From positions 826,883 through 890,882 of the forward strand of contig CAVQNT010000002.1 in NCBI GenBank assembly GCA_963714275.1: DNA of 64,000 bases, read 5' to 3'. The notes under the pieces were generated by a model, which was given only the letters and a program-made list of their open reading frames with translations, did not search any database and was not told where the DNA came from. Position numbers and translations under genes: made by a program. Below, in pieces: positions 1 to 64,000 of the stretch. Each line of letters starts with the position of its first letter. Positions within the stretch are counted from its first letter, which is position 1. Source of the DNA: Candidatus Bathyarchaeota archaeon. Lineage in GTDB: Archaea > Thermoproteota > Bathyarchaeia > Bathyarchaeales > DTEX01.

Positions 1-330
1 TTTTTTGAGAAAAATTGAGTCCCAATGCGTGATGATGTCTGTTGTGGGTCTAGTGTCAACGTCCAGCTGCCACCTTTGCCTCAGCAAGTTCTGGGCAGAC
101 AAACCCACATGTGCAGATGAGCCCGCTCCTGTGAGGGTTACCCTAGGATTCGGCTTCGAAAAAACGTTCGTGTCTAGGAAGGCAAGAACTTCTTCTTTCT
201 GTTTCTTTAGGTTCTCGAAATTTTCTATCCACAGTCTCGGTTGAGCAGCTATTTCCGATGGTGTATACTCGATTCCTTTTTTTGCACGTTCCTCTTTTGG
301 CAAGTTAACGAGCTCGTAGAGTTGGTTCAT
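1..330 (-). CDS. SIS-domain sugar isomerase (AgaS / GlmS-isomerase-like), N-terminal part, continues beyond window edge
   Basis: Manual minus-strand translation from ATG at 330: MNQLYELVNLPKEERAKKGIEYTPSEIAAQPRLW...VTLTGAGSSAHVG. The TxxEIxxQPxLW and GAGSS motifs fit AgaS-type SIS isomerases. Track ORF 5..244 (+) is its antisense shadow. Confidence 0.6.
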   Translation of the reverse strand, partial: MNQLYELVNLPKEERAKKGIEYTPSEIAAQPRLWIENFENLKKQKEEVLAFLDTNVFSKPNPRVTLTGAGSSAHVGLSAQNLLRQRWQLDVDTRPTTDIITHWDSIFLKK

Positions 331-331
331 T

Positions 332-1266
332 CTATCTTCCTACTGGTTTGTGCTGGTTCATGAAGGCTTGAACGTCAGCTTCTGTAATCATTTTCTCTGC
401 TCCCCCTATGTATAGGCATGAAAGGGCGCCTAAAGCGTTCGCAAACTCTATTGAAGCTTTGAAGTCTTTGTTTTTGTGTAAATAGTAATAGATGAAACCG
501 GCGTCAAAGGAGTCGCCTGCCCCAGTGGTGTCAACTGGTTTTATGCTGAACGGATTGACCTTGACTGTTTTGCTTTTATGTCTTCCAACTGCACCTTTTT
601 CGCCACGTTTAATGACAACAACTGGAACCTTCTCGTTTAACTTTTCAAGGGCTAAGTTGACACTGTTTATTCCAGCGTATGGCTTTAGCTTCTTTGTCGT
701 TTGGAAGAAAAATGTCAACGTGACCCAGAATTTCGTTGATGTACTCGTACTTGTTTAACGGGTCAGCGTTCGTGTCCAAAGATGTCGTCAATCCCTGTTT
801 CTTGGCTTCGGAAAAGACCTTGGAGATTGAACTGAGCAGCTTTCTCAAAATGTAGATTGACGAGATATGGAGGTGGTTGTAACCATGAAAAATTTCTGGT
901 GTCATTTCGGGCTCGGTTAAATTGTCGATGCCTTTCATGTAAGTAACGAGAGCCCTATTCTTTGGATATGTCAATGAAATTGTTATACCCGTTTTGATCT
1001 CGTTTTGTACCTTGACCTTGCTTGTTCCGACACCGCTTGACCTAAGATTCTTTAATGCTATATCGCCATTAATGTCAGCGCCTATTTTCCCGAATATGTC
1101 AACTTCGCTGCCTCAGCTGTGCGAGTCTACATGCGAAGATTGAGGCTGCGCCTCCCATTACGGTTTGGAAGTCCTCGCACGGAATTTCATGACCGAGAAC
1201 TGGAAGTTGGGGAGCTCCTGAAACGATCATGTCCACGTTTAGGTCCCCGATGACGAGACTTTTCAA
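332..1266 (-). pseudogene. PfkB-family carbohydrate kinase, reading frame broken twice
   Basis: C-terminal ORF 332..718 carries DTTGAGDSF (PfkB signature 2). The middle is ORF 645..974. The N-terminus (TTG at 1266, LKSLVIGDLNVDMIVSG) is in a third frame. Shifts lie near 1112-1118 (cagctgAggc) and near 675-690. Confidence 0.75.
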
Positions 1267-1425
1267 CTTTAAACACCGTTACTTAGCCTTTAATGCGTCA
1301 ATCATTATTCATAAATGCCTTTTATGTTTAGTCTTCTAACATCATTGAAGCAATTGACGGAATTGGGAGCAACAAGTTTATATGAATTAATGACTTCCCA
1401 AAAAGGGTGTCTGAGAGGAGAGCAG

Positions 1426-2159
1426 ATGAACCAAGCAGCGATCGAAACCGCAAGTCTCGTCAAGACGTTCGGAAACATAATAGCCCTTAACGGGTTGAGC
1501 TTTAGAGTGATGCAGGGGGAAATTTTGGGGCTGATAGGTCCCAACGGTGCGGGAAAAACCACAACCTTGAGGATTCTCGCCACGTTGATTAAGCCTTCTT
1601 CTGGTTCAGCAAAAATTTTCGGTTTTGATGTGGAAAAGAACCCGTCTGAAGTCCGGAGAATCATCAGCTATCTCCCGGAAGAGCTGGAGCCTACAAAAAC
1701 CTTTCAGGATGGGAGTACCTCGTGTTCATGGCAAACTTTTACTCTCTGAACAAGAAGGATGGTCAAGCCACCATTAAAGACGCAGCGGAAATTTCGGGAC
1801 TAGGCGCACGGTTGAAAGACAGGGTTAAAACCTACAGCAAGGGAATGAACCGTAGGCTGCTTCTCGCGAGGGCTTTGATGATGAAGCCTAAACTCGCAAT
1901 TCTGGACGAACCAACAAGCGGTTTGGACGTTGTTCACGCTTTCTACGTTAGACACATCATACAAAACTACGTAAAGACGTACGGCGTAACCGTTCTTCTT
2001 TCGAGTCACAATATGCTTGAGGTTGAGTTGCTTTGCAACCGGGTGGCTCTGATTAACGAAGGCAGAGTCATCGGAGAAGGAACTCCTCAGGAACTAAAGT
2101 CCAGTCACCACGCTAACAACCTTGAGGACGTGTTCATGGAGGCGACGAAACTTGGTTAG
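1426..2159 (+). pseudogene. ABC transporter ATP-binding protein (ABC-2/NatA-like), one frameshift
   Basis: Walker A GPNGAGKTT in ORF 1315..1749. ABC signature and Walker B (YSKGMNRRLLLA..LDEPTSGLD) are in ORF 1722..2159. Homology (LPEEAGAYKNLSGWEYL) puts a 1-nt loss at about 1683. The likely start is ATG 1426, preceded by gaggag. Confidence 0.85.
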
Positions 2160-3456: not shown

Positions 3457-3550
3457 ATCCGAATCACAATCAGTCTACCTTGCACCGACAGCCACATAAA
3501 CGGCGAGAATCACATTTAAAGAAGTGCAACATCCTTAGAGGAGAAAAAGC

Positions 3551-4366: not shown

Positions 4367-4375
4367 TCAGTCTGT

Positions 4376-4801
4376 TTAGTTTCTAGACAAATTCGACCTT
4401 AACTTCTGTAACACCCTAAAATCAGAATCCGAAGTTAGAATTATATCAGATGATTGTTCAGCAAGGGCAAGATGTATGCTGTCGTACAAGGAGAAGAAGG
4501 TTTTTCCTGCTCTTTTAAAATATTTTTTCTCTAGTTCTGCTCCTCTGTGAGATATTGATGTGGGGACCTCTTCGATGATCGTAAGGTTTGGGATTCTTTC
4601 TATATATGCCCGCGCCTCCACCGCTTCATCATCTAAACCTTGAGAAAGGAAGGCATATACTATTTCTGCAATAACAATTGTGTCCGTGTATCCGTCATGT
4701 TCTCCGTTTGTCATTTTTGTGAGCCACTCAGCAACTTTTTCGTAGCCCTTCTCTTTCTTTAGAACTTTTAAAAAAGCGTTTGCATCAAAAAAGACCTTCA
4801 T
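4376..4801 (-). CDS. PIN-domain protein (VapC-like ribonuclease)
   Basis: 141 aa with acidic PIN residues in context: FFDANAF, IAEIVY, LYDSIHLA, LTSDSDF. No antitoxin-sized ORF lies upstream. Confidence 0.7.
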   Translation of the reverse strand: MKVFFDANAFLKVLKKEKGYEKVAEWLTKMTNGEHDGYTDTIVIAEIVYAFLSQGLDDEAVEARAYIERIPNLTIIEEVPTSISHRGAELEKKYFKRAGKTFFSLYDSIHLALAEQSSDIILTSDSDFRVLQKLRSNLSRN

Positions 4802-4984
4802 TCAACGTCAACCTCAGCCACAATCTCCTTCATCTTTTTCTTTATGAAAGTGGCATGCAACCATTATTGTGCAAAATTATAGAACAATTTCAAAGTAATT
4901 GAAAAATGTAAATTTCGTTAATACTTGAACCTTAATTTTAAGGATACATAAAAACATTAAACTTGCACTATTACTTATCTGGTT

Positions 4985-5557: not shown

Positions 5558-6482
5558 TTATTCGCCAGTTAGTCTTTCTACAAGCAGATCCTCAAACGCG
5601 GAAAGGTTCTTCCATTCGACGGCGCAGTTTACGGCTTTAGCCCCGTTGTCGATTAGGGTGTAGCCGTCGTCGGTAACGTGGACGCCGAGTTTCTGCATGA
5701 CAAGAAGTTTTTCGGAGAAGGCCAAGTAAACCGCTACGGTGTCGAAAAGGATTGTGCTCTGGGTTTTGAACTGTTGCTGCCAGTCTTCGCGGCTTTTCAG
5801 CCAAACCATGTAGTTTTCCATCAACGCTTTAACAACAGGGTCGTCGTATTCTCGAACAACACGGTACTTTTCGCCCTTAAGCACGACGAAGCCACAGGTG
5901 TCAAGCGGAGTGACCGTTACTGACCAAGGAGCACCAAAAACCTTCTGCAGCGCCTTTGGGTTCGCGCTTACATTGTATTCAGCGAGGACGCCGCCTTTTT
6001 TTCCGTCGTATCCCCAAGGGCTTTTGCGGAGGCAACCGTGCATTCCGACGAACCTTGCGTTTCGGGCTATTTCTGGCTTCCGTTCAAGAGCAGCGGCAAT
6101 GTTGGGAACTGGTCCGATGCAGATTAACGTTACAGGTTCAGGCTGAATCTGTTATTGAGTCAATTATGGCTTTTACGCCGTCCTGATGCACTGTGCCGTC
6201 GTAGTCTAACAGTTGATATGTTTTGACCCATTCTTGTTGCGGACCTGTTTTGTGGCTTTGGCGAACGCCGACTCCTACTGGAATATCGGTCCTCCCCGCG
6301 GCTTCCAGCATCTTGGCTATGATTTTGGCTCGGTAGGTCGTGTTTCCCGTGTCGGAAACAACGAGTCTAACGTCAAGCTCAGGCGACTTAAGCAGCATCG
6401 TCAAAGCCCACGTGTCGTCTATGTCGCTTCCGATGTCCGTGTCTAAGATTACGGGAACTTTTTTCCTTGAACGTTGCCCCAT
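5558..6482 (-). pseudogene. Inosine/uridine-preferring nucleoside hydrolase, one frameshift
   Basis: The N-terminal ORF has the IUNH signature VILDTDIGSDIDDTWAL. The C-terminal ORF extends upstream in frame as EPVTLICIGPVPNIAAAL. Deleting one C from cagcctg (plus 6139-6145) restores DSAEPVTLICIGP. Confidence 0.85.
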
Positions 6483-6550: not shown

Positions 6551-7573
6551 TTATGGATACTCGAGCTTCACCGTTTCGCCGATTCTCGAGGACTCTTCGG
6601 CGGCTTCCATGACGGCTATGACTCTCCGCGCTTCCTCAGGCTTAACTAGCAATTTGGTTCCTCGTAGCAGGTGGTCAGCGATGTTTCGGTAATACGCTGG
6701 ATGTTTGCCTTTTCTGAAGTTTACCTGTGTTTCAACGGGTTTTCCGTCGCTGTAGGTCACCATTCGGAAATATTCTTTTTCAGGCACGGTCGTTATTCCG
6801 CCTTTGGTGCCAAGGATTCGCCAACGAGACTTACCTATGCTTGCTAGGCTGGACAGCTGCACATCAGCGACAGCGCCAGATTCGAAACGGATAACCGCTT
6901 CCACTTGGTCCTCGTTCGTGACGTCCATCCACACAAGTTTATGGAAGTAGCCCGTGACTCCCGCGATGTTGCCTGGAATGAGATTGAGAACCCAATCTAG
7001 AAGGTGCGCTCCCCAGTCGTAAAGGGCTCCGCCTGAAACCTTTTTGTTTGAACGCCACCATGTTCCCGGATGCCCATATCCGCCCATGAACGCTTCTAAA
7101 TGGAAGACCTCGCCGATTTGCCCTTTGTCTATAGTTTCCTTTAATGCCATGAAGTCGCCGTCAAGCCGTCTGTTGTGGAAAACCGAAAGTGTCAGGTTCC
7201 TTTTCTTCGCTTCGTCGATCATGGCTGTGGCTTCAGCCGTAGTAATGCACATGGGTTTCTCGACAATAACGTGTTTGCCCGCCTTCAGGCACTGAAGAGC
7301 CAAACTGGCATGAACGTTGTGGGGTGTAACAACTGTGACAAGATCAACATTCGCCTTCTTCAGCATCTTGCCTAAATCCTCGTAGGCTCTGATGGAGGGG
7401 AAATCTTTCTTGGCAGCTTCAGTCTCTTTTGGGTCCGCGTCGCAGACTGCGGCAAGCTCAAGCCCGTCTGTTGCCTTTATTTGGTCGCAGTGAGATTTGC
7501 CCATGTTGAACGCTGGTCCGTAACCTACCACGGCGCATTTAATCGTGTTCTTTTTCGCATTTTTTGTTTGCAT
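6551..7573 (-). CDS. Gfo/Idh/MocA family oxidoreductase
   Basis: 340 aa intact. Has an N-terminal Rossmann motif (KCAVVGYGPAFNMG) and the EKP motif (VIVEKPM). Confidence 0.8.
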   Translation of the reverse strand: MQTKNAKKNTIKCAVVGYGPAFNMGKSHCDQIKATDGLELAAVCDADPKETEAAKKDFPSIRAYEDLGKMLKKANVDLVTVVTPHNVHASLALQCLKAGKHVIVEKPMCITTAEATAMIDEAKKRNLTLSVFHNRRLDGDFMALKETIDKGQIGEVFHLEAFMGGYGHPGTWWRSNKKVSGGALYDWGAHLLDWVLNLIPGNIAGVTGYFHKLVWMDVTNEDQVEAVIRFESGAVADVQLSSLASIGKSRWRILGTKGGITTVPEKEYFRMVTYSDGKPVETQVNFRKGKHPAYYRNIADHLLRGTKLLVKPEEARRVIAVMEAAEESSRIGETVKLEYP

Positions 7574-15291: not shown

Positions 15292-15461
15292 TGAAGCCCC
15301 CCAAGTAACAGTTAGCCAAATTTTGTCTATAACGGTTCTTTTAAACTTTTCTGAACCAACACAACATCGCGGTTGTCTACAGCCTAAGCCAAAACAATGT
15401 AACCCAACTGTAAATACTCAATAGTTTAGACGAAGGAAGCTTTAAAAAAATAGTGACTTAG

Positions 15462-15602
15462 CTTAGCCTCCTACCAGACATAATACAGTCACTAAAAAAT
15501 AAACTAGCAGGACTGCCTGACCGAACCTTCGTCTATTCGGGGCACGGAGAAACAACAACAATCGGGAAAGAAAAAATTACGAATCCTTTTCTTCTAGCCT
15601 AA
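15462..15602 (+). pseudogene. C-terminal remnant of an MBL-fold (glyoxalase II-like) hydrolase
   Basis: Manual translation: LSLLPDIIQSLKNKLAGLPDRTFVYSGHGETTTIGKEKITNPFLLA-stop. The GHG..TTIG.EK..NPF tail is typical of that family. There is no N-terminal part upstream. It overlaps the 3' end of 15594..16985 by 9 nt. Confidence 0.5.
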
Positions 15603-16985: not shown

Positions 16986-17983
16986 CCTGCATTCTCCTCT
17001 CCTTTATAGATTTTAGTTCCCGAATTAATAATGGAATAACCTCATAAATGTCGCCTACGACGCCGTAGTCTGCAACGTTAAAAATCGGAGCCGAAGGGTC
17101 CTTGTTTATGGCGATAATCGTGTCCGAGTCCCTCATCCCGAACAAGTGCTGAGGAGAACCCGAAACTCCACAAGCAACGTAGACCCTCGGCTTAACCGTG
17201 TGCCCGCTGAACCCAACCTGGTGGTCTCTGCTTATCCAGCCAGCGTCAACGAGGGGTCTGCTTGAACCGACAACTCCACCTAAAACTTGCGCTAATTCGC
17301 GGAGAAGAGCGAAATCTTCTGGGCTTTTCAAGCCTCTTCCGCCTGAAACGATGACTTCCGCCTCGGCAAGGTTAACCTCGTCTGCCCCTGTCTTCTTGAG
17401 TATCCGCATCCCTGTGTCATCTACGATTTCAGCATCCCTCACTGTCACTGCGCCTTTCCTGTTCGGGTCCTTCAGGTTGGCTTTCATGACTTTATACCGA
17501 ACCGTCGTCATCTGAGGTCTCGTTTTGGTCTTTATCTGTGCCATGATGTTGCCGCTGAAGGCAGGACGGACCTGAACCAAGTTTCCTCCTTCATCCAAGT
17601 CCAAGTCGACACAGTCAGTCTGTAAGCCCCGTTCTCAAGGCAGCAGCAATCCTCGGCGCCAAGCTTCTTCCAAGGCGGGTCGCACCCAACAAAAAGATGT
17701 CTGGTTTCGTTTCCTCAACAAGCCTGACAATGTTGCGCGAATACTGAATCATGTCGAACTCCGCAAGAAACGGATGGTTAAAAACATAAACCGTGTCAGC
17801 ACCGTAATGGACAAGATCAACAGCCTTGTCCCGAATACCATGCCCCAACAGAACAGCTGACAGTTCCACAGCTAACCTATCAGCAAGCCATCTTCCCTTC
17901 CCAAGCAGCTCGTAAGTCACAGGATGAACTACGTTGTCGTTTTGTTCAGCGAAAACCAGAATGTTGCCTGAGACTGACACCAT
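16972..17983 (-). pseudogene. etfA: Electron transfer flavoprotein alpha subunit, one frameshift
   Basis: ORFs 17615..17983 and 16972..17604 are the N and C halves. Removing one base from cagtctg (17616-17622) restores TGLTADCVDLDLDE, matching the conserved TGLTADC motif. Confidence 0.85.
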
Positions 17984-22388: not shown

Positions 22389-24566
22389 TTATGCCACTTT
22401 CTTTTGTAGGGTTATTACTGCTACGATTGATGCTAGTGCTGCGATGAGTGATAGGACTATTGCTCCGTAAACGGCTGTTGAGATTGTCGAAGTCGTGGCA
22501 GAAGCTGCTTCGGCAGCTGTTTTGGCAGCTGTTGCAGCTGTGGATGCTACTGAAGCTGCGGAGGCTGCGGTTGCAGCTTGAGTGGAAGCGGTTTGAGCAT
22601 AGGTTTCGATGCTTACTAGTCGTGTGGATAATCCGCTTATTTGAGTTGTTAACGCAGACTGGGCGTCAGCAACTGCGGTCTGGATTGCAGTTAATTGGGT
22701 CTTTAGGGATGGTAAGCCGGTGCTGGTGCTATTGACGTAGGATTTTAAGCTGTTTAATGTAGTATCAATAGCGGTGAGCTTGTCCAAGATTACATTTTCT
22801 GCTTCTCCGACAACTGTAAACAGCTTATACGAATCAAGTGTAGGAAGTACGCTTGATACTCCCATCTTATAGAGCGCTATGACGTGTGCGCCTGGATTGA
22901 AGCCAGCGCCAATTACTATCTTAAATGCTGACAGTTCTCCTTTGCTGGAGCCCATGAAGTATTTCGGGTAACCAGACGAGGAGTTGGTAAAGAAGTCCTT
23001 GGAATAGTCTACGCATAGGTCGTAGTAAGCAGGATACGCTAAGCCTGTTCCTGTTATAGTTACCTCAGTTCCGTTGTTTATAGGTGAAGCGGGTGAGATG
23101 GTTAACAGAATCGTTACGGTAAAGGTAGCATTAGAGTATGTTTGAAGTATTCATTTGTGACAGCACTGACATCGTGGTCTCCTCCCACAGTAGTAGGAAC
23201 AGTGAATGCAGGTGAAACGAACTGGCCATTTGCGCCTGTGTAAACTTTGTATACCAAATTCGAATTTGTAGTCTTTGCAAGAGCATCGGTGTAATCCCAT
23301 ATAATGGTTACATTATTATCATTTGTATATGGGAATCCGTATCCAGAAGCAACAACAGATGTGCCAATTGGTCCACTTGAGGGGGTAAGGATTAAGGTTG
23401 GTACCACAGTTACCGTTGCGTTCATGTTGTAGGTAAGGTCGACTAACGTTATTGTGTGTATGCCCATCTGCGATACGGGTACTGTAACGCTGACGTTGAA
23501 GAATCCAGTTACACTATTCACGGTAATACCAGATATGAGTGTTACTTGTGTTGATGCCCCATAATCCCAATACAGAGCAGCTGTACCGCCAGGGTTGGTG
23601 AAGTTGACTGATACATAGATGACTGCACTAACTTTGACGCTGCCATCAACATAACCGTTACCTTGTGCGCCACCCATGCCAAGGTAAGTATTTACTTGTA
23701 GCCACCTTCTTTCGTTCTCAGTATATGTCTTTGTGGCGAGAATACTTACAGTTCCATTATAGTAGGCGTTCACGTATTTTGTCGTTTCAGCGTTGAATAA
23801 CTTACTCTCTGCAACGACGAATGTAGCAGTAAAGGTTCCATTCGTGTATGGTGTTATGAGTGGAATAACTACTGGTGTTGTACGCTGAATTGGAATTAGC
23901 ATAAGATACATTCAGTTTCTTTGTGTTGTCCCAAGCCATACCCTTGACTGTAACTGTTGTTCCTACTGGTCCAGAGGATGGAGTGATTGTTATTGATTCG
24001 TAGGGTTTCCATTGGTTCACTGAGACCGCAACATCACTTGATGGTATGCTCGCTGAAGGTAAGACGTCAACTATCTTTATGTAGTAATTGACGCCTCTTG
24101 GTACAGTACTTCCAGCTGGTAAGGGTCCAATTATCAAGTTGTTGCCAAGCCAGAACCTCTGACCAGATTTGGCGTCAGTTGTTTTTGAATAATTGCCCGA
24201 TGGTACTGAAGCTATAATACTGCTGAGTGCAAACGGACCTGCATACCATACATCACCGGGATCTATGGTAGCTCCGCCTGTTTCAGATATGTAAAGCCAG
24301 ACTTGTGCACCAGTTATTGTCATGCCTGTTATGTTAATAGCTACAAGATCTCCTGAATCATAAGAGTTAATGTGTGTTTGTATAACACTACCGGTAGCAT
24401 AACCGCCAGGAACAAGGGAATTCCAAGCATTTTCTGTATGAGAAGTTACTTTAAGGAGCGTTGGTTTGCCAGTTATCGTTGCCGATACTGGTATTATGGA
24501 AAGTAATGGTAATGCCATCATTAGTACAACAATAAGTGTAGCAAATACTCTAGATTTCTTTTGCAT
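22389..24566 (-). pseudogene. Large secreted, C-terminally anchored surface protein (S-layer/adhesin candidate), two frameshifts
   Basis: Signal peptide MQKKSRVFATLIVVLMMALPLLSIIPVSA, beta-rich repeats with many N-x-S/T sequons, an Ala/Thr-rich coiled-coil stalk and a C-terminal TM segment (AVYGAIVLSLIAALASIVAVITL). Three track ORFs are linked by frame changes near 23850-23911 and 23114-23140. The downstream frame stays open through 22956-23113. Confidence 0.7.
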
Positions 24567-26304: not shown

Positions 26305-27300
26305 TTGGACTACGCTGTTGAAACCTTTCAGATTTCAAAAATATTCGAATCAAAAGAAAAAGGCCAAAAACGGTCGGTTAGGGCAGTTGACCGAGTAGAC
26401 ATCAAAGTCAAGAAGGGAGAATTCTTCGGTCTCTTAGGCCCTAATGGCGCTGGAAAAACGACGTTAATAAAAATTTTGTGCACCATAATTCTTCCAGACG
26501 AAGGCACAGCGAAAGTCAACGGATACGACATTCTGAAACAATCATACGATGCGAGAAGCAGCTTCGGATGGTTCCACGGCGAAACAGGCGGCAGATCATT
26601 GTACTGGAGACTTAGCGCTGAGGACAACCTTAGGTTTTACGCTTATCTTCAGAATGTTCCCAGAGAGGTTGCTGACAAAAGGATCGATGCGCTTTTAGAG
26701 TTTTTCGAGCTAACCGAGGAACGAAAAAGCTGAGTCAAGGAATACTCAACCGGAATGAAGGTCAAAGTCATGCTTACCAGGGCACTGCTTCACAATCCTC
26801 CGATTCTATTTATGGACGAACCCACAATCGGGTTGGACACAATAAGCGCTGTGGACACTCGAAAATTGCTGAAAGCCCTCAACACTGAACTTGGAAAGAC
26901 GATTATCTTCACTAGCCACAACATGTTCGAAGTTGAGCAGCTCTGCGATAGGGTTGCAATAATGAGGAAAGGCAAGATAATAGCTGACTCCTCGCCTTCC
27001 CAGCTTAGGGAAACGTTGAGAGACATAAGAGCCGTCGAGGTCGAAGTTAGAGACAATATTGACATAAAGAAAATCGCTGAAAACCTTGCCAACATGCCTA
27101 TTGTCGTAAAAATTCTAGAGACAGAAAACAACGCTTCCTCCGGCGTGATTCGACTTCAAGTCGAAAACGAGTACGAGGCAATTCCCATCATAGCGGAAAA
27201 AATCCGCTCTTTAGGAATCAAAGTTTCAGCGATACGGCAGTCTGAACCGTCGTTCGAAGACATCTTCGTTAAACTGACCAGAGAGGAAGAGAACCCTTGA
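26305..27300 (+). pseudogene. ABC transporter ATP-binding protein with an in-frame TGA
   Basis: Walker A GPNGAGKTT lies before, and signature/Walker B (YSTGMKVKV..LFMDEPTIGLD) after, an in-frame TGA at 26731-26733 (AGC TGA GTC). Both track ORFs are in the same frame. Confidence 0.85.
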
Positions 27301-37549: not shown

Positions 37550-38542
37550 TTAGCTTTTAAAGTGTTCCCAACCTTTGGGTATTATTGTCAATGTTTCTTC
37601 ATCAATCTTGAGCTCGAGCTTTTTCTCTTTGGTTACGGTGCCTATTCTGATTAATCGGCTTTCGAGCTTCTCCAAAGCATTTTCTGCTTTGTCCCAGAAC
37701 ATTGGTTTCACCGTTACAACAAGCTCGTATTCTTCTCCCCCGTAGAGTCCAAGCTCCAAAGCATTAAAACCAAAGATTCTGGCAAACTCAACAGTCTCGG
37801 AAGCCAATGGAACGCTGTCGATTCTGAAGCCAACATTGCTGGCAACGGAGAGTCTCATGGAGGCTCCAAGCTAATCCGTCGCTCGAATCAATCGAAGCCG
37901 TTAATGCGCCTGTTTCTGCTAATGCGATTCCTTCTTTGAGTCGAGTCTTTAGGCATGTAAACAGCTTCAGTCAAAGGTTTTTCGATTTTACTTGGCACAA
38001 TTCTTTGTTCGAGAAGGATTTTTAGTCCAGCTGCTGTTTTTCCAAACTCTCCCGTTACAGCGACCATGTCGCCTGGTTTGGCGATGCTTCTTTTCACCAA
38101 GGTTCGATTGTTGCAGAACCCGAGAAGCGAGCAGCTGAATGACGAGGTCAGAAGATTCGCCTGTGTCCCCGCCAATAACGTATGTTCCGTATTCGCGTGC
38201 GCCTTCGTTTAAGCCTAAGCCTATCTGTCTGATGTCTTCCTCGCTACAGCTCCTAGGTAAACCTAAGGCGACCAGAACCGCGACTGGCGAGACTCCTTTG
38301 GCTGCGAAGTCGCTTACGTTCATGACAACCGCTTTTCTGGCTGCCTGCCTCAAGCTCATGCCTTGCGGGACGTCCGTTTTGCCGATAAGCATGTCCGTTT
38401 TTATGACTGCGAGAGTGTTTCGGTTAAATTGAACTGCGGATATGTCGTCTCCGAAGGGAACAGGCATCTTAGGCATCGTTTCTAGGCAGCCTTTGATTAT
38501 TTCGATTATTTTTCTTTCGCCGAGCTCGCCTGCTTTTCTCAC
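37550..38542 (-). pseudogene. thiL: Thiamine-monophosphate kinase ThiL (AIR synthase-related), three frame changes
   Basis: Contains FGDDISAV, MNVSDFAAKG, GGDTGESSDLVI, AKPGDMVAVTGEFG and IDSSDGL. The frames change near 38131-38137 (cagctg), 37944-37952 (A run) and 37858-37872 (agct). The likely start is GTG 38542 after ggagg. Confidence 0.8.
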
Positions 38543-38763: not shown

Positions 38764-39321
38764 TATAGTCCATGTCCGATTCTCTTCCACCAAACAGCCC
38801 TTTTAGTGCTCGGCGACTAATGCTAGTTGAATAGTTGACATACACAATTACACTGAAAGGCTTGAAAGAGCAAAGAAGAGGCTCTTCAAACTTGAGGGCA
38901 GCGAATTATTATTTAACTTCATAGATCATCTAGTCAGCTAGTTCATGTAAAATAAGCAATTTTTTGACGTCTTTTTTGGCAAAGGATTGCATTAAATCTG
39001 CTCTACTTTTGCTGTGGTTTCCGATTTCTAGCTGAGCTATAGTTTAAAGGTAGATACAACATCCTAATAGCCGAAGCTTTCATAGGCTGATTCCGTATAC
39101 ATGGAAAAATTCATCATAATCAGCGACGATGCAGACTACAAACGAATATCCGAAGCCAAAGTCTTAACAGAAAAAGAGTTTATCTCGCACTTAACGTGAC
39201 TTATCCTTTCTTTTAAAAAATCTTACATAAAATAGTGGGTCATGGTTTTTCCTTGAATTGCTGAAGAATCAAGCCTTATAAAACAATAGTAAGTATTCAA
39301 TTGGTTAGAGAGAGATACGAA

Positions 39322-40335: not shown

Positions 40336-41603
40336 TTGGTTGAGGTTTGGCTGCCCTACGGAAAAACGGAGGTCTGCGTGAGGATTCCGACCAAAAGTTT
40401 GCTGAAAACAGTTGAGCCAAACAATGTGGGTGCAGCCAAAAATCCTCAGTCCGAACTCGAATCGTCTTTGGCGAACCCTTTGGGGACAAAGCGTTTATCG
40501 GAAACAGCGAAGCCCGAAAGCAAGGTCAGCTATGGTTCTAAGGGACTCGGACACCTCGACCAACCAGATGATAGTTTCCGTCTTGTTGAACGAGCTGAAC
40601 TCTGCGGAAGTAAGAGACGAGGATGTGGCGGTCATCGTTGCTTGTGACCCACTTCGCGACTACCAAACTTGGCAGCAGATGCCGACGTTAGGCGAAAGCC
40701 TTTCTTCAAGAGTCAAGGTTGTTCGTCATGACCCTAAGGGCATGGAGCATGTTAATGTGGGGCGAACTTCTCGGGGAACGGATGTTTTTCTGAACAAAGC
40801 GTTCGTTGAGGCTGACTTAAAAATCGTGGCAGGAGCTGTGGAGCCACATCCTTTCGCTGGCTACAGTGGTGGAGCAGAACTGGTTTTACCAGGCGTATCG
40901 GGCATTGAGTCGATTCGTAAAAATTTTCTTTTAGCGTTGGATAAGAAGGTGGAACGTGGAAACATCGAAGGTAACCCAGTTTATGAGGACATGGTTGAGG
41001 CTGCTGGGCTTGCTGAGGTGGATTTTTGTTTAAACGTGGTTAGGAATGGCGGTTTAGAGGTGGTTAAAGCCTTCGCTGGCGACATTGAGGGTTCTTTTGG
41101 GGAAGCAGTTAAGCTCGTGAATGGGGTGTGCAGCGTTCCTGTTGACAGTCGGGCTGACGTTGTTTTTATTAGTCCAGGCGGTTTCCCATTTGACGGAAGT
41201 CTTTTCGAGTCTTTGAAGTGCTTGGATGTTGCTGAGGAACTGGTAAAAAGGGGTAAGTCTGTGGTTTTGGTCGCGGAGTGTGCTCATGGGCTTGGAGACA
41301 GAGAGTTTGTTGAGGCGGTATCAAGGCGCGATAATCTTAAGGCTTTGGAGAAGGAGGCTGAAGAGAAACTTCAGCGTCGGCAGGCTTGTGGCTTACCGTC
41401 TTTTAACCGCTGCCCAGAACGCCAGGTTATTCTTTGTTTCGGTTGTGCCCGACTACCTTGTCACTCAGGTTCACGGCGTGAAAGGCGCGAGGACGGCTAA
41501 TGAGGCTTACCGTTACGCTTCTGACGCTGCTGGGAAGAACGGGAAGGCTTCGTTTGTTCCGTACGGAAACTTGACTGTGCCCCAAATTAAGACCGTGGAA
41601 TGA
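40336..41603 (+). pseudogene. larA: LarA-like nickel-pincer-dependent 2-hydroxyacid racemase (DUF2088), two frameshifts
   Basis: Contains PHPFAGYSGG and other family motifs. Three track ORFs are joined at about 40525-40531 (gtcagct) and about 41370-41385. Confidence 0.7.
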
Positions 41604-42247: not shown

Positions 42248-42279
42248 GTCTGGTCTGATTTGTGTGACATCTGTTTTTA
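42248..42279 (+). repeat. Conserved intergenic motif copy A (gtctggtctgatttgtgtgacatc...)
   Basis: 24/24 with one mismatch to 55129-55152, about 29/32 over the extension. A related core tttgtgtgaca recurs at 42285-42295 and, on the minus strand, at 50167-50177. Confidence 0.7.
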
Positions 42280-42375
42280 TTTTTTTTGTGTGACAAACCG
42301 CAGTCTGTAAAAACTTGTTAATAATGGAAAACAAGGACTCTGCAATCTTAGAACTGTAAGGTTATTATTTGGTAT

Positions 42376-47625: not shown

Positions 47626-48577
47626 ATGATTTATATTTGTATATCTCCACAAAACTTAAGGCGGCGAGTAGAATTGAGGATTACACGTTACGTTCACCGA
47701 GGAGCAGAATCCTACGGCGTTATCCAAAGAAACGATAAGATTGCGGACCTTCCCAAACTTGGCAAAATTCAGGGAAAAACTGTTCCACCAACAATCGATG
47801 GACTCATCTCTCAAGGTTCAGCAGCGGAAAATCTTGTCAAAGAAATTTTGGACAGTGCCCCGAAAAGCCAAAACAAAAAATTCCTTCTTGAAAAAGACGC
47901 GGTTAAATTGAAGGCGCCAGTCATTTCTCCGCCTAAGATTATTTGTTTGGGGGTTAACTACAGGGACCACGCTGAAGAGGCAGAAGCCACTCTTCCAGAA
48001 GAACCCATAATTTTCATGAAGCCGAGAACAGCCTTGATAAGCCCCGAAGAACCCGTGAGAAAACCACGTTTTGTCCGAAAGTCTGGATTACGAAGTTGAA
48101 CTCGCAGTAATCATAGGCAAAACAGGAAAGAACATTCCAACCTCAAAGGCGCATGAACACGTTTTCGGATACACAGTTTTCGACGACATTTCAGCGCGGG
48201 ACATACAGTTCAAGGACGGTCAGTGGACGAGGGGAAAAAGCTTCGACACCTTCGCTCCTTTCGGACCCTGCATCACGACATCTGACCAGATTGGCGACCC
48301 GAACAATCTCCGTCTGTGGACTCGGGTGAACGGCGATACGAGGCAAAACTCTTCGACAAAAAATATGTTGTTCAACGTTTACGAAATCGTTCATCACCTA
48401 AGCCGAGTGATGACCCTTGAACCGTGCGACATAATAGCGACTGGGACACCGGCAGGCGTGGCAGCTTTCATGAAGCCGATACCTAAGTTCCTTGAGCCGG
48501 GCGACGTCGTAGAGGTGGAAGTCGAAAACATCGGAACCCTCAGAAACCCCATAACCGAAGATGCTGCAGCAACGTGA
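47626..48577 (+). pseudogene. Fumarylacetoacetate hydrolase (FAH) family protein, one frameshift
   Basis: Contains PKIICLGVNY, LDYEVELAVIIGK and GTPAGV. The frame change is near 48060-48075 (aaaa/tttt runs). The start is uncertain. Confidence 0.75.
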
Positions 48578-49705: not shown

Positions 49706-50005
49706 TTATTGAATGTTGTAAGAACCTATGTGCTGGGTATTTTTAGGGAATTTCCGTAAGAGTTCTAAGTCAGCGGTTAGAAGGGCAGCCTTAAGATGGA
49801 GAGTGAACGCAACATACGAAGCATCATAGACTGATACATCATGTTTTAAGCTAATCGTGGCGGCTTGTTCAAGAATTTTGCCTTTAGGTTCCCACGTATC
49901 AAAGCTAGCTCAGCTATAGGCAGCGCTTGAGTAAGTGGCTTTCCAGACTTCCAAAATTTCCTTTTCGACGGGAGTCATCTTCTTAAAGATATTGTTCATG
50001 CCCAT
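49706..50005 (-). pseudogene. Degraded PIN-domain (VapC-like) gene with in-frame TGA
   Basis: Manual translation: MGMNNIFKKMTPVEKEILEVWKATYSSAAYS-TGA-ASFDTWEPKGKILEQAATISLKHDVSVYDASYVAFTLHLKAALLTADLELLRKFP... The YDAxYVA...LLTAD pattern is the C-terminal half of PIN. The pieces are too short for the ORF track. Confidence 0.4.
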
Positions 50006-50205: not shown

Positions 50206-51410
50206 TTATAAGCCCCAATGTTCGTTGATGGGTTTCTGGTATTCCTCAGTTTTTCCGCTGACGACTTCGTCGTACTTCACGGCTTGACCGACATATGCGG
50301 ATTCGAAAATGGCTTCGCAGATGGCTTTAGCTTTCAGTCCAGCATCGCCATCAACCTCAGGCTTCCTCTTCTTTTCAACGGCGTCCAAGAAGTCGTAGCA
50401 TTCGATGACGAAACCGTCCATGAACCCATGCGGGAACAACGCGTTTTTTTTCGCTTCGCCCAGCTGGGCAAGATATTGCTTCTGCATCTCAACCATCGGC
50501 GTCGTAATTTTCTTGGGACCTTCCTGCAAAATTATTTCGGCGGAACTGAACGGACCATGGAAGGCATCACCATGGTCGAGAATGCATCCTTTGCTGCCGT
50601 AGTGGACAACATTCGTGTACGAGTAACCGGGGGCAGCCATAGTCCACTCCAAACTGCGACCAATCCGTTTTTGAAGGTTACCGTGGCAGCCCAAGTGTCT
50701 TCTCGGTCGTCCATGACTGATTTGTCTTCCTTTTTGTGAGGCCACTTTTCGAGCTGCTGAACCTTCGCGTAGACTGTTTCCGGGTCCCCGTACAGGAACC
50801 GTATGGTGTCGCAGAAGTGGGCACCGCTGTCCATAACCATGCCTCCTCCGCCCATCCACTTGTCGACCCTCCAGTGCCACCGTCTCTCTGTCGACGGGTC
50901 GAACCAGCCTGCTTGTTGAGAAAAAAGGAGCCGTGGCGTGCCTAAGAGCTTTAACTCGTTGATGATCCAGTGAGAGGTACGCTGGCTGATTCCTCGGCGG
51001 ATGTTCTCAGCCGTGGCAACGATCTTTTTGTTCTTTTTTCCAGCAGCGATTATGGTTTTGCTTGCCTTGACCGTTATGCCCAAGGGCTTCTCAATCATCA
51101 CGTTGACGCCGGCATCGAGACACGCAATCCCCGCAATGTGGTGTTCAGAATGAGGCGTACAAATGTCAACCGCGTCGAGCTCTTCCTTGGCCAACATCTC
51201 CAAAACACTGGTGTAAACTTTCGGCTTGTGGTCTTGAAGGGCTGCAGCTTGGTCCGCGAACTGTTTGGCTGACGCAGTCACGGGGTCGCACATGGCTGTG
51301 AACTCAAACTTCGCGGGTTCCTTTTGCTTAATCTGTTTATATGATTGCAGGTGGACCTTGGCTATTCCGCCGCATCCTATCATTGCGAGCTGTAAAGGTT
51401 TTTGGGGCAA
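50206..51410 (-). pseudogene. Gfo/Idh/MocA family oxidoreductase, one frameshift
   Basis: Has an N-terminal Rossmann motif (LAMIGCGGIAKVH) and EKP. The frame change at about 50650 is fixed by adding one T to a TTT run (AVLEWTMAAPGY). Confidence 0.8.
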
Positions 51411-51543: not shown

Positions 51544-52392
51544 ATGTTCTTCACGTTACACCCGACCATACGAGGCGTTAGAATGCAGAAAAAGTCACCG
51601 ATGATTGTTCGGTCCGCAGAGGAAGAAAAAGATTATGCTACCCTAGCCCATGTCATGAGCGAATGCTTTGGACCCGTGACGCCTCGAAACATGAAGAGGT
51701 GGATTCAAAATGAAAAAAAGAACGCCTCAGGGTACGACAGGTTCTTTGTGGCTGAGGTAGACGGAAAAGCTGTCGGCAACGTTTCAGCGGCTCCTCGGAA
51801 GCTGCACTTGGGCGAAGAAGTCTACGTGAAGACGCTGGGAGTTTTAGCTGTTTGCACTAGCTCAGAATATAGAAACCGGGGCGTAGCCACAAGCCTGCTT
51901 AAGCAAGCGATGGCTTTTGCGGACAAGTCGGGGTTCTCGAACACTTCCCTTTACACTGCCACTTTGCTTCCAGCGCACAGGATTTACGAGCGGCAGGGTT
52001 TTCGTGACGTAGAAAAAACCACGAGATACGTCAAACATTTGGATTATGATTTTTTTTCCGAAGGTGGGTAATGTGGTGCAACCGTTACCTAAAATATTCT
52101 AACATAGACTCAAAAGACGCTTCAAGGCTGGAACCACTCGGTTGTTTTCGATTTAGGAAGCATAGGCGTCAAGGCGTTCCGGTTCAGAAACGGTCGTTTT
52201 CAAAGGTTGACTAAGCCCCCTCAGGCAGCAGACATCCACATAGTCGCAAGTGCAGAGACCTTGACGCGCCTCATGTCCGAAGTATGCTTTTTGGGGGATG
52301 CAATAAAAACTGGGGAGGTGCAGGTGAAAAGAGGAAGCGACTCTGACCTTAAGATTCTAAACAAGATTCTGGTGGGCATCTGGGACGAGTGA
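51544..52392 (+). pseudogene. GNAT acetyltransferase with C-terminal SCP2-like domain (Eis-like), multiply disrupted
   Basis: The GNAT core is in ORF 51544..52071 (YRNRGVATSLL). The C-terminal part (TLQGWNHSVVFDLGS...GEVQVKRGSD) aligns to the downstream paralog but lies in other frames. There is a T8 run at about 52046. Confidence 0.55.
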
Positions 52393-55192: not shown

Positions 55193-56402
55193 TTATTCGA
55201 ACAGTGTCACGGTAACCTGTTCGTCTTCTTCTATCACGTCTAGGTTTATGGGCAAGATGATGTATCCGTCTGCTTTAGCTAGGCTAGTTATGTCGCCTGA
55301 TTTTTTGAAGGTCGGATAAGCCTTGCCATTCTTCAACTTTACTGGAAGAAACTGTTCTCTGCCCGAGCCTGAAACGAACTGTTTGCCCATTTTCGCCTTA
55401 ACCGTTTTAGGGTTCATCGGAGGCAGCTTAGCCAACACACGGATTACTGGAACAAGAAAAACGTAGGCGTTGCTTAGGCACGAAGTCGGGTATCCAGGCA
55501 TCCCGAAAACGGGCTTTCCTTCAACTATTCCGAAAAGGGTTGGTTTACCGGGCTTTATTTGAACGCCGTGGAAGACAACTTCGCCTGTTTTTTCGAGAAC
55601 CTTAACAAGGAGGTCCCGTTCGCCAACTGAGACTCCCGCCTGAAAACACAATCAGGTCGTGGTTGAGAAAGCTGATTACTGCGGACTTAAGGCTCTCAAA
55701 CGAGTCTGGCACAACCGGAGATCTTGTTACCTGAGCTCCGTTCGCTGAAAGAATAGAAGCTAAAGTATACGTGTTGACGTCGTAAATTTGTCCCTTGCCA
55801 ATCTTTGCGCCGGGTTCACAAATTTCGGATCCAGTCGGAACAACAACAATACAAGGCTTCTCGTAGACCGAAACCGTTCTTTGCCCCAACGCAGCCATAA
55901 CTCCTACTTTCGCGGGCGTGATGATTTCGCCCTTTTTCAGGACTGCTTCGCCTTTTTTCATGTCTTCTCCTCGGGGTGAAATGTTTGCTCCGGGATGAAC
56001 CGCGTCGAAAACGGAAACGTTGCCTTCTGTTTCGTCAGTGAATTCAACCATAACCACGGCGTCTGTACCTAACGGAACTGGACAGCCTGTTGCTATCCTC
56101 ACGCATTCACCTTTATTCACAGTGATGCTGAATGATTCTCCTGCGTGCAAAACAGCTGCGACTTTAAGGTCCTAGGGTTTTGTTGAGACGCGCCATAAGT
56201 GTCCTCAGCTTTAACTGCGTAGCCATCCATTGCAGCCCGGTCGAAGGGTGGAACGTCTTCTTTGGCTATGATGTCTTCCGCTAAGACTCGTCCCGAAGAT
56301 TCCTCGATTGGGACGGTTTCGGTTCTCTCAACAGGTTTCACGGGAGCTCATAATCCTCTTTATCGCTTCTTCACGGGATATGAGAAGCTTGAACGGAACC
56401 AT
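55193..56402 (-). pseudogene. moeA: Molybdopterin molybdenumtransferase MoeA, three frameshifts
   Basis: Contains [37 protein letters not shown] and KPGKP motifs spread over four frames. Junctions are at about 56345-56350 (gagctc), about 56150-56157 (cagctg) and about 55635 (gggAgtc). Confidence 0.85.
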
Positions 56403-59613: not shown

Positions 59614-59722
59614 GTTTTAAACGCATATTTTAAGGATTATGCAAACACCATTAAAGCAATTTTAAAAACAGTTTTATTTCAGCAGCCCAATCATTATTTG
59701 AAGCTCTTTTGAAGGGAAAAAA

Positions 59723-61474: not shown

Positions 61475-62336
61475 AAATGGTTACACTAAAGGATTTAGTT
61501 ACGCCCATCAAAAGTAACTGGTGCCCCGGTTGCGGAAATTATGGTATCCTAACAGCGATGAAAGGGGCTTTGGTGGAACTTGGCTTGGAAAGGGAGCAGG
61601 TTGCCTTCGTTTCAGGAATAGGTTGTCACGGAAAGATGGTTAACTACGTGGACGTAAACGGTTTTCATGGCATACACGGCAGAGTTCTCCCAATAGCCAC
61701 GGGCATAAAGCTCAGCTAACCCCGAATTAACGGTTATAGGGTTCGCTGGGGACGCTGACCAATACGATGAGGGATGGGACCACTTCTGCCATGCGATGCG
61801 GAGAAACATCGACATGACCCTGATTGTGCACGACAACCAGACCCTCGGTTTAACAACGGGACAGACAACAGCAACAAGCCTTCAAGGGTTTAAATCCAAA
61901 TCGACGCCCTTTGGCTCGGTTACACCTCCATTGAATCCCATTGCCCACGCTCTTGTCAGCAACGGAACGTTCGTTGCCCGAGGCTTCGCGGGAGACCCAA
62001 GGCACCTTCAAAGTCTAATTGTTGAAGCTGTTAGGCACAGAGGTTTCGGGTATATCGACGTTTTTCAGCCTTGTGTAACCTTCAATTACCTGAACACGTA
62101 CCAGTGGTTCCGAGAAAGAGTCTACAAACTTGATGAACAAGGACATGACTACACTGACAGGCTGAAGGCTTTGGAAAAGAGACTTTGAATGGGGTGAACG
62201 GATACCAATCGGCATCTTCTATAAGGAAGAAAGGCTCACTTACCTCGATACTTTACCTCACATAAAGGGTAAATCGCTTGCGAAATTGCCTGTTGAGAAC
62301 GTGGATGTAGCCGCCATCATCGAAACCATGAAGTAA
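61471..62336 (+). pseudogene. 2-oxoacid:ferredoxin oxidoreductase beta subunit, two frameshifts
   Basis: Contains WCPGCGNYG (TPP/Fe-S subunit start), GFAGDAD and IVHDNQ. The frames change at 61709-61717 (aagctcagctaac; removing one base gives IKLANPELTVIGF) and at about 62170-62185 (A run). Confidence 0.85.
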
Positions 62337-62504
62337 CTATCAAATAAAAGCACAAAACAACAAGAAATTTTCTGAGCGATAAGAACATTGTTTTTTACAA
62401 TTCATTTTAAGAATCGCTGAACTTTATTGAGGATTCTCTCAGTCTGCAACCGTATAAGTTAGATTCAAGTATTACTTGGCTGTATTAACTGCTGGTGTTT
62501 TCTG

Positions 62505-63287
62505 ATGGTGCCGAAAGTTGCGCTTGTGAAGACCAAAGGAAATGTGGCAGAAGCCTATCAGCAAGCTTTGAAGCTGATCGGCGGAAAAGATTTTTTGGAT
62601 GCCCTAAATGTGACAATAAAGGTTGGATTATACGACAAGCGGAACACTAACTACCCCACGGTTCAAGTCGTTAATGCGGTAGTGGACTCGTTCGCTAATT
62701 CGAAAAGGGTTCTAATCGTTGAATCTGACAACCATAACGGAAAAGCCCTAGAACGGTTACAAGAGTGGAAAGAGGTTTTTTCGGACCGTGTGACACCTTT
62801 CAGCCTTTCAGACGACCCACACATTCGTGAAGTAACGATTTGCGGAGAAAAAATCCGCTTTTCAAGCTCGCTTTTTAAGCCCAATTTCTTCGTCAGTCTC
62901 CACGTTCTGCGTAAAGGAAAGGCAGGCTGCATCTTCAAGAATCTTCTCGGCTTAATTCCTGACACAAGGAAAGAGCGTTTCCACGACAATCTAGGCGCCA
63001 CCCTCATTGAAATGGCTGAAGCCATAGGGTGGATAGACCTTGCTGTGATAGATGGAACATACATTTTTGGAAGCGAATGGAAAGAAGGCTTGCCATTAAA
63101 GAGAGAACGAAGAGACCTTATCGTCGTAGGCAGAGACCCCGTGGCAGTCGAAACAGTCGGAAGCACACTCGCAGAGGAAGATCCGCTGGCTATCCCCGCC
63201 TTAGCCATAGCTCAAAAAAGAAAACTTGGAGAAACCGACATTAATCGGATCGAAATACTCGGAGAAAGCATTAACAACTTTCTTTAA
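62505..63287 (+). CDS. DUF362 domain-containing protein
   Basis: 260 aa with an N-terminus (VALVKTKGNVAEAYQQALKLIGG) and overall pattern typical of DUF362. Confidence 0.55.
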   Translation: MVPKVALVKTKGNVAEAYQQALKLIGGKDFLDALNVTIKVGLYDKRNTNYPTVQVVNAVVDSFANSKRVLIVESDNHNGKALERLQEWKEVFSDRVTPFSLSDDPHIREVTICGEKIRFSSSLFKPNFFVSLHVLRKGKAGCIFKNLLGLIPDTRKERFHDNLGATLIEMAEAIGWIDLAVIDGTYIFGSEWKEGLPLKRERRDLIVVGRDPVAVETVGSTLAEEDPLAIPALAIAQKRKLGETDINRIEILGESINNFL

Positions 63288-63613
63288 ACCAGACGGACAT
63301 GAAGACTGATCAGCGTGAAGAACGAGTTCGACGTTGAAGAGATGATAAAACGCATAGACCGAGAGGTCAAAAAATACGAAGGGAAATTGTCTCCGAAGGA
63401 CCGAAAAAAATATTCAGTATTCTACCATAACAAAGACACCGTTGACTATGCAGAGTATGCCGTCTCAGCACATTGAAAAATACGCTTCTATGGTTTTTGG
63501 AAGAGAAAGAACTAGAGTTTTAGCTTAATAGGCAGCGTTTGAACCGTAAAATAACGTTTATCGTGGACGAAAACCGTTATTAGAACTGTATTCAAATATT
63601 TAATCGGTTAGAA

Positions 63614-63829
63614 TTGAAAGTCGAAGATAACCGAAAAAATGAAGAAACGTGTAAGGATTTCTGCGGTAGCTGCCCAAGTTACCCCGGAACAGGCGAATGG
63701 CTCTTCTGCGCAAGATGGAAAAGCAAACAAAAGATAAAAAGAAACGGGTGCCTGTGCCCCGCTTGCCAAGTTTACATTGATTACGACCTTGAAGGCGATT
63801 ACTTCTGCGACAAAGGTGCAGCCACATAA
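63614..63829 (+). CDS. Cys-rich DUF2769-like small protein
   Basis: 71 aa with CKDFCGSCPSYP and CLCPACQVY motifs. Confidence 0.5.
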   Translation: MKVEDNRKNEETCKDFCGSCPSYPGTGEWLFCARWKSKQKIKRNGCLCPACQVYIDYDLEGDYFCDKGAAT

Positions 63830-63851
63830 CTTGTGGAAGCCAAAGGACAGA

Positions 63852-64000
63852 TTATTCTACAATGACCTGCTGCTCTCTTCCTTCCCAGACGCCATGCAAG
63901 TTGCAGTATCCGCGAGCTTTCAACGTCGCTGTTTCGTTCAAAGTTACGTTGATTGTGGAAACGTAGCTATCGCTCAGTTCAGGTGCGAACTCAATTCTTG
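63852..64000 (-). CDS. Superoxide reductase (neelaredoxin/desulfoferrodoxin family), C-terminal part only
   Basis: Manual minus-strand translation: ...TLKARGYCNLHGVWEGREQQVIVE-stop. CNLHGxW is the SOR active-site Cys motif. The gene starts beyond the window. Confidence 0.6.
   Translation of the reverse strand, partial: RIEFAPELSDSYVSTINVTLNETATLKARGYCNLHGVWEGREQQVIVE

Follow-up and report, generated by a model that had tools for sequence, protein, structure and literature searches.

The window analysed here covers 64 kb of a Bathyarchaeia genome (64,000 nt of contig CAVQNT010000002.1, G+C 45.7%). By our tally it holds about 32 reading-frame lesions in 21 genes, from a pfkB kinase gene near one end to the gene for the beta subunit of a 2-oxoacid:ferredoxin oxidoreductase (OFOR-beta) near the other. 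Thirty in-gene lesions could be localised to the base by alignment with relatives, and 26 of them lie in or against the tetranucleotide AGCT; one is ambiguous (56162) and three lie elsewhere (4417, the 50718/50723 pair and 52054). An initial annotation, made from the window by itself, had proposed some 30 lesions concentrated at AGCT and had attributed them to systematic consensus error rather than to decay or programmed frameshifting. Alignment with relatives bears out the concentration, which is stronger than was thought (26/30 against 16-17 of about 30), and the attribution is supported by intact relatives, by stereotyped errors and by equal identity on both sides of the lesions. The lesions are a motif-specific consensus artefact at AGCT and not mutations in the organism.

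Relatives of the window and catalogue of the lesions

The search for relatives started from an intact protein of 574 amino acids (aa; 30146-31870), which was compared with species-representative genomes and matched only Bathyarchaeia and related archaea. Further relatives came from homologue searches and exact-protein look-ups, of which that for the OFOR alpha subunit (OFOR-alpha) gave no match. The contigs closest to the window, with their identity to it and the window positions that they cover, were:

L001, SPAdes contig of a metagenome-assembled genome (MAG) and best match of the 574-aa protein search: 87% nucleotide identity, 24559-35691
L060, ENA, MEGAHIT assembly: 99%, 7193-12481 and 14951-18007
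L080, GCA_964353545.1: 98.2%, 38114-44991
L081-L086, various sources: 98-99.8%, short pieces
L062, JGI: 96.4% nucleotide identity, 1-4530
L076, JGI: 94% nucleotide identity, 56555-64000
L075, JGI: about 91%, 3155-4368 and 4984-6672
L058, ENA: 84-90%, 44449-53090

Syntenic, more distant relatives (L002-L005, L009, L022, L059 and L077) could also be aligned to the window. The close-relative contigs are short-read assemblies from independent projects; they belong to the species of the window or to one very close to it, and stem from other DNA samples than the window. A contig of more than 1 Mb in the collection carries the exact proteins of the window (looked up with 41671-42168 and 20462-20872), as a long-read assembly would. 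Indels were listed exhaustively, relative by relative, from base-level alignments with the window. It is evident that almost all in-gene indels of a size other than a multiple of three touch AGCT, and that intergenic indels against the more distant relatives resemble ordinary divergence. Indels outside coding sequences at 1422, 5049-5247, 47573-47622, 51542 and 63842 could be natural and were not counted.

The lesions and the garbled intergenic sites are given below as the form in the relative followed by the form in the window. Square brackets mark a base that is extra in the window, a hyphen marks one that is missing, and the relative on which a line is based stands in parentheses at its end.

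677 (670..682), pfkB kinase gene 335-1276, minus strand: CAGCTA in L062 to CAGC[G]TA, AGCT destroyed
1114 (1110..1121), pfkB, second lesion: CTAGCTG to CT[C]AGCTG (L062)
1683 (1677..1689), ABC ATPase gene ~1425-2159, plus: A lost directly 5' of AGCT, GAAGAAGCTGG to GAAGA-GCTGG
4417 (4411..4423), PIN-domain gene 4376-4801, minus: CCCTTAAAA to CCCTAAAA (TT to T), non-AGCT, C-terminus garbled
6141 (6136..6149), nucleoside hydrolase gene 5558-6482, minus: TCAGCTGAA to TCAG[G]CTGAA (L075)
7423 and 7434 (7418..7436), Gfo/Idh/MocA oxidoreductase gene 6551-7573, minus: CAGCTC to CAG[T]CTC, and GGGG to GGG 11 nt off (L060)
15444..15464, intergenic: A8 to A7, and TAGCTAGCTAGCTT to TAGTGACTTAGCTT (L060)
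17619 (17614..17626), etfA 16972-17983, minus: CAGCTG to CAG[T]CTG (L060)
~23147 (23140..23155), S-layer-like surface protein gene 22392-24587, minus: frame change with no AGCT nearby
23880 (23877..23889), surface protein gene, minus: CAGC[G]TAC in the window, presumably from CAGCTAC by analogy with 677
26729 and 26733 (26722..26736), ABC ATPase gene 26305-27300, plus: A6 to A5, and AGCTA to AGCT[G]A (L001)
27660 (27655..27666), ABC-2 permease gene 27297-28179, plus: AAGCTG to AAG[T]CTG (L001)
29262 (29255..29268), CofE-like F420 ligase gene 29087-29954, minus: extra base, CAGCT[G]AAA (L001)
32259 (32254..32264), Beta-CASP / RNase J-like gene 31896-33251, plus: AAGCTCT to AAG-TCT (L001)
32752 (32747..32757), Beta-CASP / RNase J-like gene, plus: AAGCTTG to AAGCT[C]TG (L001)
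33776 (33771..33783), trmI/GCD14 33365-34244, plus: AGCTAGCT to AGCT[C]AGCT (L001)
35433 (35428..35440), TATA-binding protein (TBP) gene 35103-35679, plus: GT[C]AGCT (L001)
35876 (35871..35884), SIS-domain isomerase gene 35679-36792, plus: extra base at AAGCTTA against six relatives
37853 (37848..37860), thiL 37550-38602, minus: GAG-CTC in a relative, GAG[T]CTC in the window
37946 (37941..37953), thiL: CGAG[T]CTTT, a 1-nt insertion on which six relatives agree
38137 (38131..38143), thiL: CAGCTAAT to CAGCT[G]AAT (confirmed by L080)
38800..38819, intergenic: TTTTAAGCTCTCGGCAGCTA to TTTTA-GTGCTCGGCGACTA, two AGCT sites garbled (L080)
39028..39042 (39035), intergenic: CTAGCTAGCTAGCT to CTAGCTG---AGCT (L080)
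39083..39090 (39086), intergenic: TAGCTGA to TAG[G]CTGA
40527 (40522..40535), larA ~40336-41603, plus: GGTAGCTATGG to GGT[C]AGCTATGG (confirmed by L080)
41357 (41351..41365), larA: GGAGCTGAAG to GGAG[G]CTGAAG (predicted, then confirmed by L080)
42279..42288, intergenic homopolymer: T6 in four same-species contigs, T8 in the window
48082 (48077..48089), fumarylacetoacetate hydrolase gene 47626-48577, plus: AAGCTGG to AAG[T]CTGG (L058)
49900..49918, PIN-like remnant, minus: in-frame TGA inside AGCTAGCT[C]AGCT
50647 (50642..50654), Gfo oxidoreductase gene 50206-51410, minus: CAGCTC to CA-CTC
50718/50723 (50712..50728), Gfo oxidoreductase gene 50206-51410: +1/-1 pair 5 nt apart, non-AGCT
52054 (52046..52060), GNAT gene 51544-52392, plus: TTTTGTTTT to T8, non-AGCT (L058)
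52108 (52103..52116), GNAT gene: TAGCTC to TAG[A]CTC (L058)
55632 (55627..55640), moeA 55193-~56402, minus: GAGCT to GAG[A]CT
56162 (56156..56169), moeA: 1-nt deletion 5 nt from CAGCTG, either GAGCTT to GA-CTT or CC to C
56348 (56339..56356), moeA: one extra base at GGGAGCTCAT
61713 (61708..61721), OFOR-beta gene 61471-62340, plus: AAGCT[C]AGCTAAC (L076)
62182 (62177..62192), OFOR-beta gene: GAGCTT to GAG[A]CTT (L076)

Three sites stand outside the 30, namely 23880, with its presumed AGCT, and ~23147 and the stop at 49910 in the PIN-like remnant. At 37946 none of the relatives has AGCT, so that its AGCT origin is deduced from the AG[T]CT of the window.

The base-level alignments agree with the initial annotation on the lesions that it placed at 1115, 1682, 6139-45, 17616-22, 26728-33, 29258 and 32748, and likewise on those at 33772-80, 35430, 35874, 38133, 40525, 56345 and 61709. 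Its homopolymer lesion at 52046 does lie outside AGCT, at 52054. The in-frame stop at 26728-33 was rightly put at AGCT, and its actual nature is a double indel whose net shift of zero leaves an in-frame TGA at 26731. At 56154-57, where an AGCT lesion had been thought probable, the 1-nt deletion stands and the AGCT assignment is ambiguous. On the other hand, a lesion of thiL had been set at the AGCT at 37869, and its true place is 37853; those at 37944-52 and 50650 had been taken for homopolymer errors and are destroyed AGCT sites. Lesions at 677, 7423+7434, 27660, 32259, 41357, 48082, 52108, 55632 and 62182, all at AGCT, were absent from its list. In 13 of the 26 AGCT lesions it is the lesion that has abolished the AGCT in the window, which is why a reading of the window alone assigned some to homopolymers, misplaced one in thiL or could not localise them.

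The PIN-like remnant is a C-terminal piece (49700-50003, minus), preceded by an unrelated N-terminus of 31 aa and an in-frame TGA inside AGCTAGCTCAGCT. The spacer there is 534 nt long in the window and shorter in close relatives (211 nt in L058). No homologue of the remnant (49.7-50.0 kb) was found among the fetched loci, and no relative covers the TGA at 49910-15.

AGCT as the error motif and the forms of the miscalls

Enrichment was examined for every 4-mer, without bias towards AGCT. Across the six closest relatives without overlap (42,846 4-mer sites, counted in the relatives), AGCT ranks first of 136 4-mers for 1-nt indels in or next to the site (18/212, 8.5%, against 0.67% overall; p=1.3e-14), and the next in rank (GCTA, CAGC, CTAG and AAGC) all overlap AGCT. 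In the comparison with L060 (99% identity), no 4-mer is changed as often as AGCT (8/48 against 3.7%). When only AGCT sites that survive in the window are considered, 12 of the 30 lesions are no more than 2 nt away from one, against 3.9% of positions (p=5e-10). AGCT had been expected at about 1 position in 256; the window in fact has 314 sites, one per 204 nt (observed/expected 1.28), and the consensus is wrong at about 8-10% of AGCT sites. Plain AGCT is the error motif. CAGCTG, the longer alternative in the initial annotation, is ruled out, since any of the four bases occurs on either side of the error sites.

The miscalls take few forms. With the site destroyed, AGCT became AGTCT at 7423, 17619, 27660, 37853, 37946 and 48082, AGACT at 52108, 55632 and 62182, AGGCT at 6141 and 41357, and AGCGT at 677, or lost a base (AG-T at 32259, A-CT at 50647). 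With the site surviving, an extra base stands directly against it, as T[C]AGCT at 1114, 33776, 35433, 40527 and 61713, as its mirror AGCT[G]A at 26733, 29262 and 38137, and as other adjoining insertions at 32752, 35876 and 56348; at 1683 and 26729 an A was lost 5' of AGCT. The same forms recur in the same contexts: about nine are AG[T/A]CT, about eight T[C]AGCT/AGCT[G]A and three AG[G]CTGA. A deterministic context rule is ruled out by 88 TAGCT sites that are intact in the window.

Two double errors, 7423/7434 and 26729/26733, compensate each other at a distance of 4-11 nt. The first leaves the open reading frame (ORF) of the Gfo/Idh/MocA oxidoreductase looking intact, because its indels cancel, although about four codons are wrong. 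Generally, at the +1/-1 pairs (7418-7436, 26722-36 and 50712-28) the ORFs stay open and a few residues are wrong.

Those central miscalls whose form is independent of the flanks are divided along the window. Only the plus form (AG[T]CT, AG[-C]T) occurs from 7423 to 48082 (n=7) and only the mirror form (AG[A]CT, A[-G]CT) from 50647 to 62182 (n=5), a perfect separation with one switch (P=0.0025). Such a switch between 48082 and 50647 is what strand-specific read errors at a palindrome would give, and it may reflect a changed orientation of the dominant or backbone reads. GC skew has no feature at 48-50 kb and follows gene orientation. Among substitutions at AGCT sites of relatives, five gave AACT or AGTT in the window and none went in the opposite direction, an asymmetry that is weakly suggestive of C-to-T calls at the cytosine of the motif.

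Close relatives also carry short intergenic (TAGC)n blocks, e.g. CTAGCTAGCTAG, with a stop in all six frames. They lie in L060 opposite window position 15451, in L058 opposite 47603 and 48797, and in L080 opposite 39035, and in the window each of them is garbled or cut short. In the close relatives TAGCTAGC has about ten times the frequency that it has in distant Bathyarchaeia loci.

The interrupted genes in relatives and after repair

With regard to the reality of the lesions, the same-species short-read contigs (L060 at 99%, L080 at 98.2%, L062 at 96.4% and L076 at 94%) have intact AGCT and intact genes at the lesion positions. For example, etfA in L060 encodes 336 aa and larA in L080 421 aa without interruption, as does the nucleoside hydrolase gene in L075 (307 aa). 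In the comparisons at 98-99% (L060 and L080-L084), every indel lies at AGCT or in a homopolymer, including the garbled intergenic clusters at 15451-64, 38806-19, 39035 and 39086. The sole others are three intergenic indels at 21196-21237, which look like natural strain polymorphism because L085 and L086 disagree with each other there. Moreover, there is no decay downstream of the frameshifts: protein identity to L001 before and after lesions is 96/91, 84/81, 86/86/89, 90.5/90.9 and 94/92%.

Repair of the window leads to the same result. Twenty-eight edits at AGCT-derived sites turned 17 of 18 split genes into single frames that are full-length against the proteins of relatives. Full-length Pfam domains were recovered for PfkB, PIN, ABC_tran, ABC2_membrane, F420_ligase, Lactamase_B_2+RMMBL, GCD14/TrmI, SIS, AIRS/AIRS_C and GNAT, the repaired pfkB protein being a full-length PfkB match. 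The repairs at 38137, 40527 and 41357 were made before a close relative was found, that at 41357 purely by analogy with 6141, and all three were exactly confirmed by L080. The surface protein (22392-24587, minus) consists of three ORFs in the window, two of which are joined by the repair at 23880, a site without close-relative cover; its homologue in L001 has about 710 aa at only 27-54% identity.

About one third of the genes of the window would be annotated as pseudogenes or split genes, and ORFs that look intact in the assembly may hide errors in the form of compensated pairs and probably substitutions. With frame errors of which some are hidden, gene calls, completeness estimates, pseudogene counts and ratios of nonsynonymous to synonymous substitution rates (dN/dS) are unreliable until the assembly is polished.

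Apart from the lesions, a segment of 2.47 kb (12482-14950) is missing from L060. It is flanked by a perfect direct repeat of 38 bp (12444-12481 = 14951-14988); the repeat forms the 3' end of a TFIIS-like gene. The ORF at 14271-15080 (minus) has a Phage_integrase domain (E=8.8e-9) and ends prematurely in ...LRHYYASMLY*. Positions 12444-14988 have the look of a small integrated element whose tyrosine integrase is truncated.

Proposed origin and comparison with known AGCT methylation

We consider it very probable that the frame lesions are consensus errors from native long reads, most likely nanopore, over modified AGCT. The contig would have been built from native-DNA long reads, and the cytosine of AGCT would be modified on both strands in this Bathyarchaeia population, most plausibly to N4-methylcytosine (m4C) by an orphan type II methyltransferase; 5-methylcytosine (m5C, M.AluI type) or another modification could stand in its place. 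A basecaller and polisher untrained on the modified k-mer would then mis-segment the signal and give a small set of stereotyped miscalls, namely AG[T]CT (AG[A]CT from the other strand), T[C]AGCT with its equivalent AGCT[G]A, AG[G]CTGA, AG[-C]T and the loss of a neighbouring A, with C-to-T and G-to-A substitutions probably also among them. The errors would be strand-specific in origin, and the remaining ones would be ordinary short-homopolymer miscounts. On this pattern the organism probably methylates AGCT. Palindromes in the window are unevenly represented (observed/expected 0.14 for GGCC, 0.32 for GATC, 0.40 for CCGG, 0.42 for GTAC and 0.50 for CTAG, against the value above unity for AGCT), which suggests restriction pressure on those five and none on AGCT. 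The non-avoidance of AGCT agrees better with an orphan methyltransferase than with a restriction system.

Several points weigh against this origin. We infer both the platform and the modification from the assembled sequence alone. A regular-expression scan for DNA methyltransferase catalytic motifs in six frames of the 64-kb window gave only short or out-of-frame matches and no credible gene. In OFOR-alpha, PriS and Pus10, substitutions that are private to the window and fall on residues conserved above 90% are not clustered at AGCT. Only about 10% of AGCT sites are affected, as the many intact TAGCT sites illustrate, so that the miscall is not deterministic and something more, for instance low coverage or the wider sequence context, must be involved. 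Finally, indels dominate here, whereas published R10.4.1 modification errors are mainly substitutions, though our way of detection favours indels. A modification bulkier or more unusual than plain m4C or m5C would explain the excess of indels over C-to-T and G-to-A substitutions, but we regard it as improbable.

Among explanations other than modified AGCT, a purely algorithmic bias of the basecaller or polisher at AGCT k-mers, unrelated to modification, survives best and is still unlikely. Stereotyped and context-dependent errors are what it would produce, and the modification is known here only through its presumed effects. No training set, however, is short of unmodified AGCT k-mers, which are not known as an error hotspot; the motif-linked nanopore errors that have been published vanish after amplification (PMC11610573, PMC11610603), and m4C at AGCT is known in related archaea (PMC6329791). 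Considerably less probable is a library artefact at AluI-type blunt cuts (AG^CT), in which A-tailing or end repair adds or removes the central base. The commonest error, the insertion of one T or A at the exact centre of the site (AG/CT), is indeed what A-tailing would give. Yet many errors are non-central (a C before, a G after, a neighbouring A lost), and a central G, deletions, substitutions and garbled (TAGC)n blocks also occur; about 90% of sites are intact, and AluI is used in no standard long-read or shotgun protocol.

Genuine mutation, by recent pseudogenisation or by an AGCT-targeted mutational process in the lineage, appears highly improbable. The lesions are in the deposited sequence, and AGCT is a deaminase hotspot in other biology, but a deaminase should leave transitions rather than indels. 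Essential genes are hit (those for TBP, which is single-copy, and OFOR-beta, and etfA, thiL, moeA and trmI). The signs of genuine pseudogenes, i.e. lesions common to independent assemblies and decay downstream of them, are both lacking: the contigs at 98-99% identity, which come from several independent metagenomes, are intact. Further points against mutation are the compensated pairs, the occurrence of +1 as well as -1 events and the garbled intergenic AGCT clusters. Programmed ribosomal frameshifting or stop-codon recoding at AGCT-containing sites is hardly credible, since, although both in-frame stops are TGA, the frames of relatives are uninterrupted with ordinary sense codons at the orthologous sites, insertions and deletions shift the frame in both directions rather than in one at a conserved site, there are no slippery sequences, and the stop at 26731 is a double indel.

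The lesions are an assembly artefact of a known kind, and their sole biological content is a testable prediction of AGCT modification in an uncultured Bathyarchaeia species, for which the error pattern serves as an indirect methylome read-out. In nanopore assemblies, a Dcm methylation motif on which there had been no training accounted for about 70% of the consensus errors, homopolymers coming next (Wick et al. 2019, PMC6591954), and modification-induced nanopore errors are strand-specific and gone after amplification (PMC11610603, PMC11610573). Our lesions resemble these Oxford Nanopore cases (Dcm CCWGG, PMC6591954; the 'ambiguous positions' of R10.4.1 and its strand-specific mismatches, PMC11610573, PMC11610603) in that one short motif dominates with homopolymers second, in their absence from short-read data, in hints of strand-specific forms and in the spurious frameshifts and pseudogenes that result. 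They differ in the motif, AGCT, in the host, an uncultured archaeon, and in the excess of indels over C-to-T and G-to-A changes.

The predicted motif is the same as the m4C-methylated one in Nitrososphaerota and several methanogens. A Thaumarchaeota MAG has m4C at 96% of AGCT sites and an orphan M.Mma5219II-like methyltransferase (PMC6329791), and 82-91% of AGCT sites are methylated in marine Thaumarchaeota (PMC8919816). Records of m4C at AGCT exist for Thaumarchaeota, Methanohalophilus and Methanospirillum (PMC6329791, PMC8919816, PMC11033074), and M.Nca01I, M.MhuIV and M.Mma5219II are AGCT methyltransferases (PMC11033074). Unlike in systems of the M.Mma5219II/M.NspBD3I type, no such gene was seen within the 64 kb, and methylation is deduced here from the error pattern only. 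On the other hand, the window shares with orphan AGCT N4-cytosine methyltransferases (M.Mma5219II, M.MhuIV, M.NspBD3I and M.Nca01I) the same 4-bp palindrome and an archaeal host, their hosts including the neighbouring Nitrososphaerota. As in those orphan archaeal systems, AGCT is not avoided, as expected where a methyltransferase acts without a cognate endonuclease.

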